A stretch of DNA of 58,588 bases. Origin: a virus. Taxonomy: Duplodnaviria > Caudoviricetes. Position 1 is the first letter of the stretch; every line of letters starts with the position of its first letter. The stretch covers positions 1 through 58,588 of IMG/VR virus record IMGVR_UViG_3300046167_000685; one strand, 5' to 3'. Shown here one piece after another: positions 1-58,588 of this stretch. A program made the translations under genes and the position numbers. Below the pieces are notes generated by a model. That model was given only the letters and a program-made list of their open reading frames with translations, made no database searches and had not been told where the DNA came from.

Positions 1-520
1 GCCCGGCCCCGGGCCTCGAGGACCGCGCCAAACGTACCGGACGCCGTGCAGCTCGATCGTAAAACCGGGCAAAACGGCCCGAAACCCCCGGAAACCGGGC
101 AATTCTCGAGCAGCTCGACGCACTAGGACACGGCGTACCGGCACGAGATCGACGAGAGACGGCCTTTCGTGCGGCGAAAATCGCTCAGCAGCGGGCCGAA
201 CCCCGGCCAGTGGCTTATAACTTTTTCGCTCTTTTTTGTGGTTTTTGCCAGAAATCGCCAAAAAACCGCAGAACCCGGTCCCGAAATCTGGAGCGAATTT
301 TCAGCAAAAAATCACGAATTGGCGGAAAACCGCCAGTTTTGCCAAAAAAAAACTAGGACCGGGTTGCACGATCCGCGCCCGCTGCTGAACAAAATCCGGC
401 GCACAGGTCGCCAGATCAGGCAGGGGCCCCGGCCTATCGGGTCAGATCGACCTGCCTCAATCATCGGGTCCCGCCCAACGTCGCGCCCGGCCCGCGGTGC
501 TGCCAGACGGGTGCTAGGGC
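1..520 (+). repeat. Left direct terminal repeat (520 bp)
   Basis: Sequence 1-520 (gcccggcccc...gtgctagggc) recurs at 58069-58588, the end of the window. Confidence 0.95.
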
Positions 521-559
521 CATGTTTCTGACAAATAATCCTGTGAAAAACGATATAGA

Positions 560-575
560 TGTTTCACGTGAAACA
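560..575. promoter_or_regulatory. parS: parS centromere-like site (ParB/Spo0J binding palindrome)
   Basis: TGTTTCACGTGAAACA, exact match to the bacterial chromosomal parS consensus; intergenic; extends to an 18-bp palindrome 559-576. Confidence 0.85.
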
Positions 576-668
576 TTGCCTAATTATTAGGCAAATGCTC
601 AAGGCTTGTTCACTGTCAAATAAAAGGGCATATTCTTGCATACTGTTTGTGCACTTTAGGGTCCCCCG

Positions 669-2115
669 ATGGATGTATCTGATCAGGAGTTAAAGCTCCA
701 ACTTCGACTTGCTCAGCTCGAGAAAAATGAAGCTTGTCAGGATGAGTTTCTGCCGTTTGTAAAATCTATGTGGCCGGAGTTCATTGCCGGTCGTCACCAC
801 AGGATCATTGCAGAAAAGTTAGAACGTGTTGCCCGCGGGGAGCTCAAGCGTTTGATCATCAACATGGCCCCGCGGCACACGAAGTCTGAGTTCGCATCCT
901 TCTTGTTCCCGGCGTGGATGATGGGCAAGAACCCGAAGATGAAGATCATTCAGGCTACCCACACGACGGAACTTGCGGTTAACTTTGGACGTAAGACGAA
1001 GAACTTGATTGACAGTGACGAGTACAAGGAGGTCTTTCCGAATGTCAAACTCGCTTCTGATAGTAAAGCTTCTGGTCGTTGGGACACTGCTTCTGGCGGG
1101 ATGTACTACGCCGTTGGTGTGGGATCGAACCTTGCCGGGCGTGGTGGCGACTTGGTAATTATCGATGACCCGCACTCAGAGCAGACAGCTATGTCAACAA
1201 ACGGATTTGATGATGCTTGGGATTGGTACACCGGGGGCCCCCGGCAGCGTCTCCAGCCGGGCGGAAGTATAGTTCTGGTTCAGACCCGGTGGTCCGAGAA
1301 GGACATGACGGGTCAGTTGCTCCGTGCAATGGCTAAAGATCCGCTAGCTGACCAATGGGAGGTTGTAGAGCTTCCGGCCATTTTTGACGACGACAAGCCC
1401 TGTTGGCCGGAGTTTTGGTCTCTTGAGGATCTGACCGCGGTCCGCGCATCTATTCCCCCGAGCAAGTGGAACGCGCAGTATCAGCAGAACCCGACGGGTG
1501 AAGAGAATGCGATCATTCCTCGTCAGTGGTGGAAGAAGTGGGAGAAGGGACAACATCCCGAATCTTGAATATGTGATTCAGAGCTATGACACGGCGTTCT
1601 CGAAACGCGAAACTGCTGACTACTCGGCGATCACGACTTGGGGTGTTTTCAGGCCGGAGGAGGTTGGGGGCCCTCCGGGACTCATACTTTTGGACAGTAC
1701 GAAGGGTCGATGGGATTTTCCGGAGTTGAAGCAGGCGGCTTTAGAGCAGTATAAGTATTGGGACCCCGACACCGTCATAGTAGAAGCCAAGGCTTCTGGG
1801 TTGCCTTTGACGCATGAATTACGGAATATGGGTATTCCTGTTGTTAACTTTACGCCTAGTAAGGGTAATGATAAGGTTACGCGAGTTCATTCTGTATCGC
1901 CGTTATTTGAGGCTGGCATGGTTTGGGCCCCCGACACCACCTTCGCTGACGAGATGATTGAGGAGGTGGCGGCGTTCCCTAACGGGGAGCATGACGACTT
2001 GGTAGATAGCATGACGCAGGCTTTGATGCGTTATCGGCAGGGCAACTTTGTACAGTTGCCGACTGACGATTGGGGCGAAGAGGATACGGGAATGCAAGTT
2101 AGGGCCTATTACTGA
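669..2115 (+). CDS. terL: Terminase large subunit (split by a probable +1 sequencing frameshift near 1547)
   Basis: ATPase motifs INMAPRHTKS, VIIDDPH, VQTRW; C-terminal nuclease SYDTAF...HDDLVDS in ORF 1498-2115; removing one G from gagaagggacaac joins the frames. Confidence 0.9.
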
Positions 2116-3522
2116 TGGCCGAAGTATACCGAGGCTATCTGCCGGGCGAGTCCCACTGTAGGTGATATACCTATTTTGGGGCCCGTGGTCAGTGCGCTAG
2201 CTCCTGTCGAGCGCGATGTCATCACACCGCCGGAAACCACTTACATCGAAGACATGGGTTGTTCGCTACCCGGTGACTACGGAGGGCGAGTATGGGGATC
2301 CTCGCGTTGGGACTCCTGCTGCGGTACAGGGGTATTCTCGACTTTGTTCAGTACCTAAGAGACGATCCCAAGGCCGCGGCTTCTGCTATTGGCGCGGGGA
2401 TTGCGTCAATACCAGAGCAGCAGTTTTACGGTGGTCTTGCTATGACGCAGGGCTTTGACGCTGCGTATAACCCGGAGACGGGAGAGACTTACACATATGA
2501 CTCGTTGCTTTTACCGGCGACCACGGCGGCGGGGACTATGGCTAGTATTGCGCGTACCGCGGACGACGGCTCTACGGTTCTCGGCATCATGGGCGGTCGC
2601 ATGGCAAAGTCGGGGCCCAGTAAGTTTAGCGAGGCCCGCGCGGCGCGGCGCACGAAGGACGAGCAGGAGCTTTTTGACGAGACGGGCGCGTACTTTGATG
2701 ACGAACTTTTCCCGGATGAGGGTGATGCGTTTCGCTTTGAGATACCCACGGTAAACTCGGAGCTAGTTGGTATTGAGAATGTTGTCCGTAAGTCGAATGA
2801 CAGTTCTGCGGGCCCGGGGCCCCGCAACTATTTTTACATGGACGACAAGACAGACGTTACTGCTTTGAAGCAGGACGTTGTGAGTGCCAACATCTTTGAT
2901 GATGGCACGGTTAGTTTTGAGTCGCAGTTTGTGAACGCGGCTGGTGAGCTTGAGCCTGCTAAGTACCCGCGTCTTTCAGAGATTCTGGATTTTCCGGAGC
3001 TGTATGAGCAGTATCCGCAGTTGAAAGATGTTTATGTTGCCCGGCTGAATGCTAATGCTCAAGCGGCTATGATAGAGGATGGGATTGGTGGCCGCCCGAC
3101 CATTGCTCTTAGCCCTGCTTTTAGCCCTCAGATGCTTCAATCGTATTTGTTGCACGAGGTTCAGCACGTAGTTCAGAAGATTGAGGGCTTTCCTCGGGGC
3201 GGTGACACGATGAAGATGTCGGACGCTGATTACAACCGTCTGGCTGGTGAGGTTGAGGCTCGGAACGTAGAGGACCGGTTTTTGGCTGCGCGGGGTTTTC
3301 AAAAGAGTGGGGCTAGGTCGGACACGATTCCTCCGATATATGATCCGTCAAAGGTTGTTCCGACACAGACGCGGGATACGAAACCCTAGCCAGATTCTGT
3401 TGAAAGCCCAAGGCGGCGTAGTCAGCATGGTCGATCTTGCGCGGAACGCGGGCCGCGGCCCTCGGGGCGTAGCTAGTCTAGCCCCTGTAGCTAGGAATAT
3501 GAACCGGTCTATGTTAGGTTGA
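2115..3522 (+). CDS. LPD23-like polyvalent-protein zincin metallopeptidase (reconstructed across ~4 single-base insertions)
   Basis: Core ORF 2292-3389 has FRFEI...PELYEQYPQL...LLHEVQHVVQKIEGFPRGG...AGEVEARNVE (HExxH); ORF pieces from 2115, 2176, 2216, 2292 and 3307 join if single extra bases are removed. Confidence 0.65.
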
Positions 3523-11039: not shown

Positions 11040-11948
11040 ATGGCTATTTCTCGCGCACAACTGGCGAAAGAGCTTGAGCCCGGCTTGAATGCTCTTTTCG
11101 GCCTTGAGTTTGATCGTTATGAAAACGAACATGCCGAAATCTTTGACGAAGAAACTTCTGATCGTGCCTTTGAAGAAGAGGTGATGCTCGGGGGTTTTGG
11201 AACTGCTCCGGTTAAGTCCGAAGGTGGAACCATTAGCTTTGATGACGCGCAGGAGACTTACACTGCACGTTACACACACGAGACCATTGCTCTGGCTTTC
11301 TCGATTTCCGAAGAAGCCATTGAAGACAATCTGTATGATCGTCTGGCCTCGCGTTACACTAAAGCTTTGGCTCGCTCTATGGCTCAGACCAAGCAGATCA
11401 AAGCTGCGGCAATCTTGAACAATGCGTTCAGCACCGGGGCAAGCGCCATCGGTGATGGCGCGGCACTGTGTTCGTCTTCTCACCCGTCTCTTTCTGGCAA
11501 CCAACGTAACTTGTTGTCTACTGCGGCGGATTTGAATGAAACCTCGCTTGAGCAAATGCTCATCGACATTGCTGGTTTCACTGACGAGCGCGGCCTAAAG
11601 GTTGCTGTACGTGGTATGAAGCTCATCATTCCAAAAGAACTGCAATTTATTGCGGAGCGGGTGATGAACTCAAACCTTCGTGTGGGCACCGCCGATAATG
11701 ATGCAAACGCCATGAAGAACATGGGAATGCTGCCGGAAGGTGCAGTGGTTAACCACTTCCTGACGGACACAGATGCTTTCTTCATCAAGACGGATGCACC
11801 TAACGGCTTCAAGATGTTCAATCGCTCACCAATCAAAACCGCTATGGAAGGCGATTTTGATACCGGTAACATGCGCTTCAAGGCGCGTGAGCGTTACAGC
11901 TTCGGTGTTTCCGATTGGCGCTGCGTTTTCGGTACACCCGGCGCATAA
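11040..11948 (+). CDS. Major capsid protein
   Basis: MAISRAQLAKELEPGLNALFG N-terminus; KARERYSFGVSDWR C-terminus; strong RBS; followed by terminator. Confidence 0.85.
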   Translation: MAISRAQLAKELEPGLNALFGLEFDRYENEHAEIFDEETSDRAFEEEVMLGGFGTAPVKSEGGTISFDDAQETYTARYTHETIALAFSISEEAIEDNLYDRLASRYTKALARSMAQTKQIKAAAILNNAFSTGASAIGDGAALCSSSHPSLSGNQRNLLSTAADLNETSLEQMLIDIAGFTDERGLKVAVRGMKLIIPKELQFIAERVMNSNLRVGTADNDANAMKNMGMLPEGAVVNHFLTDTDAFFIKTDAPNGFKMFNRSPIKTAMEGDFDTGNMRFKARERYSFGVSDWRCVFGTPGA

Positions 11949-12028: not shown

Positions 12029-12071
12029 TCCTGACAGTCACATTGGGTGACTGACACTAGCCACGACAGGA
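12029..12071 (+). promoter_or_regulatory. Structured 5' leader that may sequester the Shine-Dalgarno
   Basis: Hairpin cagtcac/gtgactg (12035-12053) enclosed by tcctg/cagga, the latter overlapping the AGGAG SD. Confidence 0.4.
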
Positions 12072-12078
12072 GATGTAC

Positions 12079-12540
12079 ATGGCTACCACTACTTTTTCTG
12101 GCCCAATCAAAGCCGGACCTATTAAGAACACAACAGGAACTACCCTTGGCACCAACATTGCGAATGTTGGTCAAGTCGTTATGGCTCAAACCTTTTCAGT
12201 AGATCTTTCTGGAGGTGCTGTTGCAGCCGAAGTTACTAATGTTGTTATCCCTGCTAACTCTCAGATTATTGATTGTGTGATTGACGTAATCACTGCGGCG
12301 AGTGGCGCAACTAACCTTAGTGTTGGCGATACTGTTGGCGGTGCGGCCACAATTCTTAACACCTTCGCGATTGGGACGACGGCGGGCCGAAAGTATCCAA
12401 CAACTCAAGCTGGTGCAGCATTGGCGTGGCAAGATACTGGAACAGCCGATATTCGTCTGACCGTTACAGGTTCTGCTGCGACAAGTGCGGGCCTAGTTCG
12501 TGTTACAATCCTGTATCAGCAGAACAACAATCTTGCTTAA
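12079..12540 (+). CDS. Capsid decoration/structural protein
   Basis: MATTTFSGPIK start; beta-rich; after the capsid gene. Confidence 0.65.
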   Translation: MATTTFSGPIKAGPIKNTTGTTLGTNIANVGQVVMAQTFSVDLSGGAVAAEVTNVVIPANSQIIDCVIDVITAASGATNLSVGDTVGGAATILNTFAIGTTAGRKYPTTQAGAALAWQDTGTADIRLTVTGSAATSAGLVRVTILYQQNNNLA

Positions 12541-16326: not shown

Positions 16327-16749
16327 ATGGCCTTTTCTGGAAATTTCTTGTGTACGTCTTTCAAGAGCGAACTGTTCAATGCAGTTCATAATTTTGGAAG
16401 TCATACTTTTAAGGTCGCATTGTTTACTAACAGCGCGACATTGAATGCAACCACAACCGCATACTCAAGCACCAACGAAGTTAGTGGTACGGGTTACAGT
16501 GCAGGTGGGGCAACTGTTGCAAATGTTAGTGTAAATACTAGCGGAACCACGGCGTTTATAGATTTTGATGACGTTGCCTTTTCAAGCTCTACGATAACTG
16601 CGAGAGGCGCACTTTTGTACAACAGCAGTGCTTCTAACAAAGCCGTAGCAGTGTTTGATTTTGGTGCGGATAAATCTTCGTCGTCCTCAACATTTACAAT
16701 CACAATCCCGACGGCGGATGCGAGCAATGCGATAGTTAGGATTGCCTGA
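16327..16749 (+). CDS. Virion structural protein
   Basis: CTSFKSEL...FKVALFT...GTGYSAGG...ITARGALLYN. Confidence 0.65.
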   Translation: MAFSGNFLCTSFKSELFNAVHNFGSHTFKVALFTNSATLNATTTAYSSTNEVSGTGYSAGGATVANVSVNTSGTTAFIDFDDVAFSSSTITARGALLYNSSASNKAVAVFDFGADKSSSSSTFTITIPTADASNAIVRIA

Positions 16750-23654: not shown

Positions 23655-24143
23655 ATGAGCACACTATTCGTAGACACCATCAACGAGAAGACCAGCGGCA
23701 ACGGAGTGGCTATTCCGGGTCATGTGATTCAAGTGAAATATCGTACAATACAAAACGCGGGCATTAGCACCACTAGTACATCTTTCACAGACTGCACGAA
23801 TATTTATGTGGATATCACGCCGAAATCATCTTCAAATCTTATAGTGTGGCAATGTACGCAAACCTTTAATTTGAACGATGAAAACGGATATGCCCGATTC
23901 CGTATCGTAGATTCCAATAACAGTGACGCTACTTGGAGTAGCAACACTTACATGGCTTCAGTCGCATACTACCAACCTACAACCACTTATATAGACTACC
24001 CGATGTTCCATATTAATACCGCAGGGTCTACTAGTGGAATGCGGCTACAGTTGCAGGTTTTAATTGAAAGCGGAGGCACTTTAACCAACAACTGGTCCAC
24101 TCTAGATGCCAGATCAATTATGGCGATGGAGATTGCCCAATGA
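23655..24143 (+). CDS. Tail fibre-like protein
   Basis: GHVIQV...ITPKSSS...MAMEIAQ. Confidence 0.6.
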   Translation: MSTLFVDTINEKTSGNGVAIPGHVIQVKYRTIQNAGISTTSTSFTDCTNIYVDITPKSSSNLIVWQCTQTFNLNDENGYARFRIVDSNNSDATWSSNTYMASVAYYQPTTTYIDYPMFHINTAGSTSGMRLQLQVLIESGGTLTNNWSTLDARSIMAMEIAQ

Positions 24144-43421: not shown

Positions 43422-44960
43422 ATGTCAGTTGATACTTTTTCAGCTATATTTGACGGGCTAAAGCTCGCCTATGGCACATATAAAATCGAAAAACAGCAGG
43501 CTAACGGTAAGAATACTGGTAGAGCTGCCATCATCCGCGAACCGCGGAACACGGCTCTTTGGGAGGGCCATCTGTCTGGTAAGGGCCGCGGCATTGGCAT
43601 CATCCCCATCAACGAGGACAACAAGTCTGTTTGGGGCTGCGTAGACGTTGACCAGTATCCGCTCGACCATAAGGTTCTAGTCGAGAAAATTCGTAAGCTG
43701 AAGCTGCCGCTTGTCGTCTGCCGGTCAAAGTCCGGCGGGGCGCATTGCTTCCTGTTCACCACCGAATGGGTGGATGCCAAGGACATGCAGGCCACGCTGC
43801 AACAAATCTCCGCTGCGCTGGGCTACGGCGGCAGCGAAATATTTCCAAAACAGATCAAGCTCAACCTTGACCGCGACGATGTCGGCAACTTTTTGAACCT
43901 GCCGTACTACGACGCCGAGGACGGGCTGCGCTACGCTATTAAAGACGACGGCACCTCTGCCACCCTCGAGGAGTTCTTTGCGCTCTACGAGAACTACAAG
44001 CAGACGCCCGAGCAACTGACGGCGCTACAGGTGGGCGATCCTGAAGAGGTATTACCCATGAAGGACGGCCCGCCGTGCCTTCAGTTCCTGCTCAAGAACA
44101 AGATATCCGAGGGTGGCCGCAACAACGGGCTGTTCAACATCGGCGTCTATCTGCGTAAGGCATACCCGGATAGCTGGGAATCGGAGATATTGACATACAA
44201 CATGCAGTATCTGGAGCCGCCGCTGCCGCTCAGCGAGGTCAACATCGTTGCCAAGCAGCTTGAGAAAAAAGACTACGCCTACCGGTGTAGCGACTCTCCA
44301 ATCAACGCGCACTGTAACAAGGACCTGTGTCAGACCCGCAAACATGGCATCGGTGCAGCCATCCAAGGCGCGGCAATCGCGAACCTTCGCAAGTATAACT
44401 CAAACCCGCCGGTCTGGTTTCTGGATGTAAATGGCGAGCCCGTCGAGCTGGATACAGAGGCTCTGATGAGCCAACCCGCGTTTCAAAAGTGCTGCATGGA
44501 GCAGCTTAACTTCATGCCCCGGTCTGTTAGCAAGCAGGTTTGGGAAGGCCGTATTGGCGGGCTAATGAACGAAATGCGGGACAATGAAAGCGCTATCATA
44601 GATGTTGCCGAAGACGCCAGCATCAACGGCCAGTTTTACAGCTATCTAGAAGAGTTCTGCGCCCATATGCAAAAGGCCAATGATAAGGAAGAAATATTGC
44701 TCAAGCGTCCATGGACGGATGAGGAGACCAATACGACACTCTTCCGTTTGAAGGATTTTGAGGCGTATCTCAAGCGCAACAAATTCTTTGAGTACAAACT
44801 GCACAAAATCGCCCAACGCCTACGCGACATGGGAGGTCAAAGCCGGGCTCTCCGTATTAAGGGGCGACTTGTTAAAGTTTGGGAAGTGCCTGCTTTCGAC
44901 GAAGCAGACGTAGACATTAAAACGCCATCCTTTGGCAGTGGTGAAGGAGCACCCTTCTGA
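43422..44960 (+). CDS. Primase (AEP-like with PriCT domain)
   Basis: WGCVDVD, RSKSGGAH, LNLPY; PPCL...EGGRNNGLF; Cys cluster. Confidence 0.75.
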   Translation: MSVDTFSAIFDGLKLAYGTYKIEKQQANGKNTGRAAIIREPRNTALWEGHLSGKGRGIGIIPINEDNKSVWGCVDVDQYPLDHKVLVEKIRKLKLPLVVCRSKSGGAHCFLFTTEWVDAKDMQATLQQISAALGYGGSEIFPKQIKLNLDRDDVGNFLNLPYYDAEDGLRYAIKDDGTSATLEEFFALYENYKQTPEQLTALQVGDPEEVLPMKDGPPCLQFLLKNKISEGGRNNGLFNIGVYLRKAYPDSWESEILTYNMQYLEPPLPLSEVNIVAKQLEKKDYAYRCSDSPINAHCNKDLCQTRKHGIGAAIQGAAIANLRKYNSNPPVWFLDVNGEPVELDTEALMSQPAFQKCCMEQLNFMPRSVSKQVWEGRIGGLMNEMRDNESAIIDVAEDASINGQFYSYLEEFCAHMQKANDKEEILLKRPWTDEETNTTLFRLKDFEAYLKRNKFFEYKLHKIAQRLRDMGGQSRALRIKGRLVKVWEVPAFDEADVDIKTPSFGSGEGAPF

Positions 44961-45535
44961 TGAAAGACCGTAACGACTACATTTACGAGCAGCGCGTAGT
45001 GCAGCTCCGCACCTATCAATCCATCGCAGATGAGGTGGGCCTGTGCCGCGAGCGTGTGCGCCAAATCGTAGTTGCCGTGTCTCAGCGCATTCGCTGGGAG
45101 CAAGAGATTGAAGCCCTGCCGGACAAGCCGGACAAGATGTGCCACCTCGTCCTGCCCCGCAGGGTCCGTAACTGCCTCAAGAACGAGTTCCTGTTCGACC
45201 TGACATTTGAGGAGTTTATCGAATACGCCGAGAATAAGAAGCTCGACAACATACCCAACCTCGGCAAGGGCAGTATCACGTTACTTGAAACGCGGCTCGC
45301 GGAGCAAGGTTATGTCCTGCCCAATCGACTACGTAACAAAGCCAGCCTGCTTCGTGATGCAGTCCAAACCAAGCGCGAAGTTCGGTACGCAAAGTATCGG
45401 CAGATTATGAAATGGCGAGAAGAGCGGCGCAGCATCAAATGGATCGCTTATGAAGTGGACATGAGCTACGGCGGTGTTGTTCAAATCATTCAACGCTTCC
45501 TTGCCAACCCCGAGGCCCTCGATGGAACAAAATAA
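44960..45535 (+). CDS. Transcription regulator: sigma70 region 4 HTH + RNAP alpha-CTD-like + HTH
   Basis: TYQSIADEVGLCRERVRQI; LPRRVRNCLKNE...IPNLGKGS; SIKWIAYEVDMSYGGVVQI. Confidence 0.65.
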   Translation: MKDRNDYIYEQRVVQLRTYQSIADEVGLCRERVRQIVVAVSQRIRWEQEIEALPDKPDKMCHLVLPRRVRNCLKNEFLFDLTFEEFIEYAENKKLDNIPNLGKGSITLLETRLAEQGYVLPNRLRNKASLLRDAVQTKREVRYAKYRQIMKWREERRSIKWIAYEVDMSYGGVVQIIQRFLANPEALDGTK

Positions 45536-49480: not shown

Positions 49481-49571
49481 CGGCTGAATAACGAGTGTCA
49501 ATTCAGTTGACATCTTTTTTTAGCTATAGTATGGGATAAGTTCTATTTAATCGTATAGCGAGGGTTTACTA

Positions 49572-52747: not shown

Positions 52748-52876
52748 GTCGTGTATAGTATAAGATAAGTCGCATATGGGACATCTCTTTTAACTCATTG
52801 ATTTATAATATAAAGATAAGAAGAGCGCAAAAGCGCCCACGCTATTTGAAACCGTCAACAACTACGGGAGGTCAGT

Positions 52877-53478: not shown

Positions 53479-53522
53479 CTCTGTAAAAAGGATGGGAGTT
53501 GACCTTTTTAACTGAGGAAACG

Positions 53523-54155
53523 ATGGCGGCAAGAAAGAGAGCGTCGAAGCTTACTGGCAAACCCATGGAGACCCGGGGCCGTCCCCCGGTGACAGCACAA
53601 TCGGCTTTGACCCGAAAGCAGGAGCTTTTTGTCAAAGAGCTGGTCAGTAAGGACGGTCAGATAACTTTGAGAGAAGCAGCGGTCAACGCGGGTTACTCTG
53701 TTGGTTCCGCGCACACCCGAGCCTATGAGCTCACCAATCCACACATCTCGCCGCATGTTGTCGCTGCTATACAGGCTTATCGCAGAGAGCTAGATGAAAA
53801 GTATGGTGTGACCTACCAACGTCATCTACGGGACCTTCAACAGATACGGGACACTGCTTTGCAAAACGGGGCTTACTCTGCTGCCGTTCAGGCGGAATAT
53901 CGGCGAGGTCAGGCACAAGGGGACATTTATGTTAGCAAATCCGAGATTCGTCACGGCTCGATAGACAGCATGAGCAAGGACGAGGTTTTGAAAGCCCTCG
54001 AGGAGATTAAGAATAGTTATGCCCCGGTCACCATCAACATCACCCCAGAAGATGAAAATGCCTCCAATCGCGACAAAGCGAGAGGCAGGCTTTTACAAGC
54101 AAGTGAAGGAAGCAGCGCAGAGGTCGAGACGGAAGCTGCTTTTGACGAGGATTGA
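53523..54155 (+). CDS. terS: Terminase small subunit
   Basis: LTRKQELFVKEL...EAAVNAGYS...AYEL; GAYSAAVQAE; RBS GAGG before ATG 53523. Confidence 0.75.
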   Translation: MAARKRASKLTGKPMETRGRPPVTAQSALTRKQELFVKELVSKDGQITLREAAVNAGYSVGSAHTRAYELTNPHISPHVVAAIQAYRRELDEKYGVTYQRHLRDLQQIRDTALQNGAYSAAVQAEYRRGQAQGDIYVSKSEIRHGSIDSMSKDEVLKALEEIKNSYAPVTINITPEDENASNRDKARGRLLQASEGSSAEVETEAAFDED

Positions 54156-54979: not shown

Positions 54980-55030
54980 GTTTTCTATATATGTGGGATA
55001 AATCGCATATAACTACGGGAGCAATTAACC

Positions 55031-56050: not shown

Positions 56051-56136
56051 GGGAAATTAACTTGCGTATGGTGGGATAATGTGAGACAACACCCAGACGG
56101 CCCAAGCCGGGCCGCATTTTAACGGGAGCATAACCA

Positions 56137-57468: not shown

Positions 57469-57555
57469 ATGCTTTTAATACTGGCAAAAATCCCATATAA
57501 AAAATTATGTGAAAAAGTATCAAATGATACTTTGCAAGTATGGGAACGAAAACCA

Positions 57556-58047: not shown

Positions 58048-58068
58048 ACCATTAAACCAGTGAATCAT

Positions 58069-58588
58069 GCCCGGCCCCGGGCCTCGAGGACCGCGCCAAA
58101 CGTACCGGACGCCGTGCAGCTCGATCGTAAAACCGGGCAAAACGGCCCGAAACCCCCGGAAACCGGGCAATTCTCGAGCAGCTCGACGCACTAGGACACG
58201 GCGTACCGGCACGAGATCGACGAGAGACGGCCTTTCGTGCGGCGAAAATCGCTCAGCAGCGGGCCGAACCCCGGCCAGTGGCTTATAACTTTTTCGCTCT
58301 TTTTTGTGGTTTTTGCCAGAAATCGCCAAAAAACCGCAGAACCCGGTCCCGAAATCTGGAGCGAATTTTCAGCAAAAAATCACGAATTGGCGGAAAACCG
58401 CCAGTTTTGCCAAAAAAAAACTAGGACCGGGTTGCACGATCCGCGCCCGCTGCTGAACAAAATCCGGCGCACAGGTCGCCAGATCAGGCAGGGGCCCCGG
58501 CCTATCGGGTCAGATCGACCTGCCTCAATCATCGGGTCCCGCCCAACGTCGCGCCCGGCCCGCGGTGCTGCCAGACGGGTGCTAGGGC
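58069..58588 (+). repeat. Right direct terminal repeat (520 bp)
   Basis: Matches 1-520. Confidence 0.95.

Follow-up and report, generated by a model that had tools for sequence, protein, structure and literature searches.

Phage-plasmids of the P1 and N15 type carry a centromere, encode their own ParA and ParB, and use parS sequences of their own, and at the cos site of phage lambda the host protein IHF serves as an architectural factor. For phage phi29, two papers describe five parS sites on the genome and a host protein, Spo0J, that helps to move the phage genome into the prespore (PMC2731898; PMC9437464). Our literature search found host-type parS on a virulent phage only for phi29 and Nf and no report of it in marine or Gram-negative lytic phages, and the main text of the papers examined on the HTVC023P/CRP-901 group contains neither the word parS nor ParB. 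The genome described here carries one such site close to its end. The window, i.e. the whole stretch of DNA that was analysed, is an entire IMG/VR virus record of 58,588 bp, which is rated 100% complete and placed in the class 'direct terminal repeats' (DTR). The features on which the following discussion turns are:

1..520, no strand assigned: left copy of the terminal repeat (right copy at 58069-58588), an exact 520-nt prefix that equals the suffix of the record

521..556, + strand: conserved 36-nt boundary element CATGTTTCTGACAAATAATCCTGTGAAAAACGATAT, directly after the repeat boundary, in a register kept in nearly all relatives

559..576, no strand assigned: host-type parS, an 18-bp palindrome ATGTTTCACGTGAAACAT with its 16-bp core at 560-575, recognised by pattern match and conservation

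577..595, no strand assigned: second palindrome TTGCCTAATTATTAGGCAA, abutting parS, read from the sequence

606..634, + strand: candidate sigma70-like promoter of the packaging operon (TTGTTC, 17 nt, CATATT), a regex match

669..2115, + strand: terL, in two overlapping frames (669-1568 and 1498-2115), with a Terminase_6C match in the C-terminal part

53499..54155, + strand: terS, the small terminase subunit (Terminase_2, Pfam E = 5.6e-6), 4.5 kb before the right repeat

The core at 560-575 fits the pattern TGTTTCACGTGAAACA without a mismatch, and likewise the 16-bp palindrome TGTTNCACGTGNAACA, which we take to be the chromosomal parS consensus; the same word was found beside parB in a bacterial genome. 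An earlier note, made from the letters of the sequence, had read the palindrome at 559-576 as a consensus parS, about 40 bp from the left repeat and upstream of terL. The identification holds, and the distance was right to within 2: the 18-mer begins 38 nt and the 16-mer 39 nt past the repeat, and the terL ATG at 669 follows 93 nt after the end of the 16-mer. The record contains one perfect match, the next best, at 23725, having 3 mismatches. The half-site TGTTTCAC occurs only within the parS site, compared with a chance expectation of 2.24 matches in the genome, and a search for half-site enrichment across the genome found none. Perfect sites are expected at 0.8-2.1e-5 per window under Markov models of orders 0-3. 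A single perfect match is not decisive, because a scan of about 250,000 windows of such size would meet a few perfect 16-mers by chance; that the site is more than a chance occurrence follows from its conservation among relatives. A 22-codon ORF that runs from the 521-556 element through parS (MFL...VSRET...) was considered as a gene and rejected, being cut short or changed in relatives, with a stop at codon 8 in L194.

All large ORFs but one lie on the + strand. The left part of the genome holds terL, the portal gene, lysis genes, and capsid and tail genes to about 40 kb, beyond which follow an SNF2 helicase (on the - strand), an AEP primase, a UvrD-type helicase, PolA, small genes, and terS at 53.5 kb. 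The terL frame is split by one extra base near 1547, within a G run (window 1540-1550). In relatives terL is a single frame, and the extra base is absent from contigs of two public runs; the split probably represents an assembly or sequencing error of the record and not a broken gene. The sole Rfam match in the window, a Mu-gpT-DE RNA motif at 12029-12081 (+; 71.8 bits, gathering score 49), lies close 3' of the major capsid gene (11040-11948) and is unrelated to the parS question. A recurrent motif of the type TATGGGATAA..TCGCATAT is found in intergenic positions ahead of genes in the right third (49540-49570, 52750-52790, 54990-55020, 56080-56110 and 57530-57545), and in some relatives it also precedes terL; possibly it represents a class of promoter used by this phage group.

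The 520-bp terminal repeat has a G+C content of 0.61, compared with 0.51 for the genome, and contains short direct and inverted repeats. A relative (G004; 57,546 bp, class DTR) has a shorter repeat of 301 bp, both boundaries of which fall at most 1 nt from the spots homologous to those in the window, and its parS lies 38 nt inside from the repeat boundary. That two independent assemblies combine differing repeat lengths with identical boundaries argues for a genuine repeat whose ends are defined. In both records the repeat starts right after ...AATCATG and ends between ...GGGCC and ATG (ATGTTT in G004). Both boundaries thus stand in a CATG context (window 58057-58069 and 511-524, and the ends of G004), and these contexts may be terminase cutting sites. 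In one 13.9-kb contig from a public run, upstream DNA continues into positions 1-1559, which is expected of a concatemer and of a circle alike. The public runs consist of contigs, in which molecule ends are not visible, and a unitig break at ~511-521 in one of them carries no weight.

In the clade of the window, the neighbourhood of the site has a constant layout, with the boundary element, 3 nt, parS, ~28 nt, and then TTGTTAAC, 17 nt and CATATT. The boundary element is also kept in relatives without parS, and its core TGTGAAAAANNAT has one further copy at 57508; the element could serve in packaging or cleavage, or be promoter-like. Parallel to this, parS-plus and parS-minus relatives alike retain the TTGTTAAC/CATATT pair, and the 606-634 candidate was not listed by a stricter promoter scan of the window. 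The palindrome at 577-595 is only partly conserved, with variants such as TTGCCTATTTTTTGTGCAA in relatives, and is gone together with parS in the parS-minus clade, where a ~45-nt deletion spans both. An initial reading of TTGTTAAC in these relatives as a decayed parS (a 'GTTAAC remnant') was discarded. TTGTTAAC is a conserved -35-like element in its own right, found downstream of parS as well, so that the parS-minus form represents a ~45-nt deletion. Other lineages differ in the details. In L119, L212, L039 and L178, parS follows shortly after a promoter-like TTGTT... element, with 35-60 nt between the site and the terL ATG, and by eye it appears to overlap a -10 box. In a sub-clade that has terS and a VRR-NUC-like gene ahead of terL, the site is still found at the boundary and promoter, 1040-1042 nt from terL.

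A query with the N-terminal part of TerL retrieved at least 600 IMG/VR contigs, of which the best 80 (87-98% identity) were examined. Upstream of terL, 62 of these contain the perfect 16-mer, 2 contain it with one mismatch, and 16 have none; four of the 16 (L144, L154, L169 and L185) include too little upstream DNA, which leaves 76 informative relatives. The presence of parS at the equivalent place in related genomes had been set beforehand as a check on the reading of the earlier note, and it was found, with at most 1 mismatch, in 64 of the 76 (62 perfect and 2). When 63 sequences (52 unique) are aligned on the site, the mean non-consensus fraction is 0.002 in the 16-mer. It is 0.34 over the preceding 60 nt as well as over the following 45 nt, and no other 16-nt window in the alignment falls below 0.25. 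The conserved unit is exactly the 16-mer, because the bases directly on either side vary, and the 18-bp form of the palindrome is specific to the window genome. Some copies in relatives with 1-2 mismatches differ only at positions 5/12 (TGTTCCACGTGAAACA, TGTTCCACGTGGAACA), which are presumably the degenerate positions of natural chromosomal parS. On a terL DNA tree with branch paths of 0.1-0.5 changes per site, the presence and absence of parS require at least 5 changes of state. Seven relatives with the clean ~45-nt deletion form a parS-minus clade (support 98) nested among parS-plus lineages, and 5 other informative relatives also lack the site. The comparison with the flanks indicates that purifying selection keeps the 16-mer. 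Thus, parS seems to be under selection, since it is conserved relative to its flanks, yet dispensable, since it was lost in some lineages.

Beyond these relatives, the 16-mer occurs in at least 119 IMG/VR contigs, and among the matches listed 29 encode a relative of TerL or of the portal protein. Whole relatives carry 1 site, some 2 or 3. Among 80 wider TerL relatives on MAG and SAG contigs (51-86% identity), only 4 have a perfect site within 6 kb, and the reversed pattern, used as a control, gave 0 matches in 619 kb of these wider relatives. One of five cultured relatives, the Pelagibacter phage HTVC027P, contains the site with 15 of 16 positions matching, the outermost base being different; it is located at 16412-16427 of the record (1501-1516 of locus L205), in a VRR-NUC-like gene adjoining terS, ~4 kb upstream of terL. 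HTVC023P, CRP-902, DSL-LC04 and 023Pt_psg01 have no site at up to 2 mismatches. Long ORFs of some relatives, in the neighbourhood of terL and the portal gene, also contain parS, at distances from terL of up to several kb (L209 at 1997, 3035 and 3716; L076 at 4730; L120 at 7121; L099 at 1849; L012 at 5103; L211 at 1827). There it always reads VSRET (VPRET or VSRGT in the one-mismatch forms), within linker-like stretches rich in Gly, Pro and Ser. One protein contains three parS copies, two of them in a duplicated GGDVSRETASP segment. Selection for the peptide was considered and ruled out: when 1.41 Mb of related loci are translated in all six frames, VSRET occurs 132 times, each time encoded by the exact parS word and 0 times by other codons. 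It is therefore the DNA word itself that appears to be selected and not its context, because the copies within ORFs are all the exact word and none uses other codons. A second clade (L294-L373), whose TerL is ~27% identical to that of the window, has sites with at most 1 mismatch, mostly perfect, in 38 of 80 loci. All of them lie 0.06-3.8 kb upstream of terL, and 32 of the 38 loci have 2-5 sites, in arrays that stretch over 1-2 kb (examples are L358, at 2532-3320, and L320); the reversed-pattern control found 0 matches in 574 kb of this clade. These arrays look like centromeres.

A binding partner encoded by the phage itself was sought in several ways. Six-frame searches of the window with profiles for ParB_N, HTH_ParB and parB_part (PF02195, PF17762 and TIGR00180), for the ParA families PF13614 and PF01656, and for the tyrosine integrase PF00589 retrieved none, and control genomes gave matches in the same searches. 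Pfam scans of 70 ORFs of the window likewise contained no ParB, ParA or integrase family, so that the statement of the earlier note that parA, parB and integrase genes are missing is confirmed. The window thus has no self-contained ParABS cassette with its own parA and parB beside the centromere, and no repressor, integrase or replication-control module was recognised in the genome. Among 45 related records, including 9 with a completeness of at least 90%, none had ParB_N above the cut-off; one weak match (15.6 bits) was seen in a distant record of 122 kb. In the second clade, 12 records, one of them complete (61 kb), contained no ParB_N. The gene content beside the site is identical in the parS-minus relatives and their parS-plus sister, with terS in both, and so no partner gene was lost together with parS. 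About half of the ORFs have no Pfam match. Among the annotated ORFs, DNA binding is suggested only for TerS and for a 191-aa protein encoded at 44960-45535 (+). The latter weakly matches sigma-70 region 4 (at residues 15-45) and the RNAP alpha-CTD (at residues 62-126), and it may act as a transcription factor, by mimicking RNAP or by contacting it.

Several features hint at the host. Cultured relatives of the phage infect SAR11 and a Roseobacter. The lysis genes code for a GTA-type 3TM holin, a GH108 endolysin and a SleB-like hydrolase, families that we take to go with alphaproteobacterial phages and gene transfer agents. The genome has a G+C content of ~0.51, and for the Roseobacter host of CRP-901 a value of 48% is given (PMC10149686). 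Together, these hints point to a marine alphaproteobacterium of medium G+C; a tRNA gene, which might have served as a further clue, was not found in the genome. An assignment from metagenomic bins was tried and abandoned: the 80 TerL relatives in GTDB genomes are filed under bins of many phyla, including archaea, and bin labels are for this reason not host evidence. One 'Maricaulis' MAG holds at least 5 different contigs of the phage family (among L212-L291), a case of viral contamination of bins. Single-cell genomes, in which relatives of 57-61% identity occur under Pelagibacteraceae, carry some weight as host evidence. In one Pelagibacteraceae single-cell genome, which also contains a relative of the phage family, a perfect parS lies 1.5 kb from ParB. 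A Rhodobacteraceae MAG also encodes ParB, and has two perfect sites on a separate 4-kb contig of three consecutive ORFs that, judged by eye from gene order and a short peptide, appear to be the origin-region genes mnmE-gidA-gidB. The host assemblies examined contain only 1-2 perfect sites each.

The 16-bp site would, on these comparisons, be a working copy of the chromosomal centromere of the host. After DNA entry, host ParB probably nucleates on parS, and would then close into CTP-bound clamps and spread over the adjoining DNA near the genome end. Under delayed lysis, for instance when marine hosts grow slowly or starve, the ParABS/SMC machinery of the host might treat the phage genome like an origin region. 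With neither integration nor partition genes of its own, the phage could then have its genome retained, positioned and inherited by daughter cells. The parts of this model differ in strength. That host ParB binds the phage site is likely; that holding or segregation is the payoff, once binding is granted, has a chance that at best approaches even. Borrowing of the host parS for holding and segregation during delayed lytic development, in the manner of phi29 and Spo0J, is accordingly put forward here as a tentative reading of the whole, somewhat short of an even bet. The proposal of the earlier note that this orphan site loads host ParB has gained comparative rather than direct support, through the conservation of the site, the lack of ParB in the phage and in 9 near-complete relatives, the identity with the host word, and phi29. 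For a use like that in phi29 speak the published precedent, the centromere-like arrays of the second clade and the variable placement of the sites. Against it, parS is dispensable (the 7-member deletion clade and 5 further siteless relatives) and rare in the wider family (4/80 MAG and SAG relatives; 1/5 cultured phages), and no feature of the genome points to a non-lytic state. Any essential role is disfavoured by the existence of natural parS-minus lineages. One site 560 bp from a free DNA end is moreover a poor platform for clamps, unless the genome circularises or forms concatemers, and a role in segregation alone would not predict that the site always stays near terL and the repeat boundary.

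This nearness speaks for a rather unlikely alternative, in which ParB binds with a local effect and the parS-ParB complex controls the packaging operon or the terminase cut, either by repressing late genes until replication titrates ParB (a copy-number timer) or as an architectural factor at the concatemer junction. Such control would fit the fixed place of parS in the clade of the window, 3 nt after the boundary element and ~28 nt before the promoter candidate, its position just past a TTGTT... element and 35-60 nt before the terL ATG in other sub-lineages, and its persistence at boundary and promoter where terS and the VRR-NUC-like gene moved ahead of terL. The right boundary of the repeat, i.e. 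the right-end cut, is 38-39 nt from parS in two independent records, and in P. aeruginosa ParB reportedly represses the promoters adjoining parS3 and parS4 (PMC5521831). However, the promoter geometry varies by lineage, from upstream of the -35 element to close to -10/+1, the same promoter and boundary element persist where parS is missing, and neither sites within ORFs up to several kb from terL nor arrays of 2-5 sites over 1-2 kb would be needed by a single operator. The earlier note had also suggested that spreading ParB silences an adjacent late promoter. The promoter is plausible, with a sigma70-like candidate ~30 nt downstream, but the occurrence of parS inside ORFs and in multi-site arrays in relatives argues against the silencing of one promoter as the general purpose of the site. 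We regard it as decidedly doubtful that ParB acts instead on the incoming or newly cut DNA end, where its clamps would hold the first DNA and ratchet the genome in, and possibly shield it from exonuclease and mark the concatemer junction for the terminase. If this were the case, phages would have converged on orphan parS sites beside their packaging genes and genome ends as a general device, and not as an aid to segregation.

The site might also serve as a sink. Tens or hundreds of replicated phage copies would draw ParB away from the host origin and derail segregation and division, in some Alphaproteobacteria via MipZ-type systems, in favour of phage production. Withdrawal of ParB is said to affect cell division in Caulobacter. 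A perfect high-affinity consensus site and the presence of only 1-2 perfect sites per examined host assembly would suit such competition, the arrays of the second clade would strengthen it, and dispensability fits an accessory of host takeover; but a sink has no need for a position at terL or the genome end, where the sites nevertheless cluster, and we consider this role quite improbable. There is little likelihood that the binder is a phage protein without a recognisable ParB fold, such as TerS, the HTH-like product of 44960-45535 or another ORF, with a convergent or incidental identity to parS. About half of the ORFs lack a Pfam match and could hide such a protein, TerS is an HTH protein whose target is expected near the repeat boundary, and the 44960 product has its weak sigma-region-4 and alpha-CTD-like matches. 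Co-evolving pairs of phage proteins and sites, however, would not be expected to leave a host word unchanged at 16/16 positions across clades with TerL ~27% identical, and the parS-minus relatives lost no adjoining partner gene and kept terS. A site with no function at all, either a palindrome that arose by chance or a neutral fragment of host DNA spread by descent, is extremely improbable. A few perfect 16-mers are expected in a scan of such size, many of the 62 carriers share ancestry, and the tree needs only 5 state changes; yet the site is invariant between flanks that are 34% non-consensus, the exact word recurs in at least 3 different local contexts and inside ORFs, and the arrays of the second clade contrast with 0 control matches.

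The borrowing of host parS for holding and segregation, tentative as it is, would have wider consequences. The phage group is common in metagenomes of marine, estuarine and riverine origin, with at least 600 IMG/VR contigs encoding this TerL type, and sequence words of the window are shared with 24 public runs from 20 studies, only the top three of which contain at least half of the words. If host ParB loads onto these genomes, centromere borrowing would be a widespread strategy of 'strictly lytic' ocean phages, beyond the spore-forming Bacillus, with a bearing on persistence in slow-growing hosts and on the lytic/temperate dichotomy of ecology. The cultured HTVC027P, with its 15/16 site, offers a ready experimental system, and the parS-minus lineages provide a natural comparison that is close to isogenic.

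Among known systems, the virulent Bacillus podophages phi29 and Nf are most similar in that a host chromosomal parS word is present on phage DNA without a ParB of the phage's own, and the partition protein of the host, Spo0J, binds there and acts on that DNA (PMC2731898, PMC9437464). The phage of the window agrees with this type in its virulent appearance, without integrase or repressor, in its host-type parS and in the lack of ParB. Unlike phi29, which has five sites and an entrapment in the spore that involves Spo0A boxes, it has one site, at the repeat boundary beside terL. The two phages are unrelated: the window phage is SU10/HTVC023P-like and has DTRs, whereas phi29 uses a terminal protein. 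To our knowledge, SAR11 and Roseobacter form no spores, and since these are the hosts of the cultured relatives, the payoff must differ from that in phi29. With the chromosomal ParABS system, in which ParB acts as a CTP-dependent clamp, the phage shares the identical 16-bp palindrome of Pelagibacteraceae and Rhodobacteraceae genomes. In contrast to chromosomal parS, which is found in an origin-proximal position near parAB, the copy in the window is a single site on a virus that is devoid of parA and parB, and is not beside oriC. It also differs from the cassettes of the P1/N15 type, as parA and parB were sought in the window phage and not found. As with IHF at lambda cos, a host protein would by this prediction bind close to the terminase cut, at a distance of 38-39 nt from the right boundary of the repeat; unlike that case, relatives without parS keep the same boundary element.
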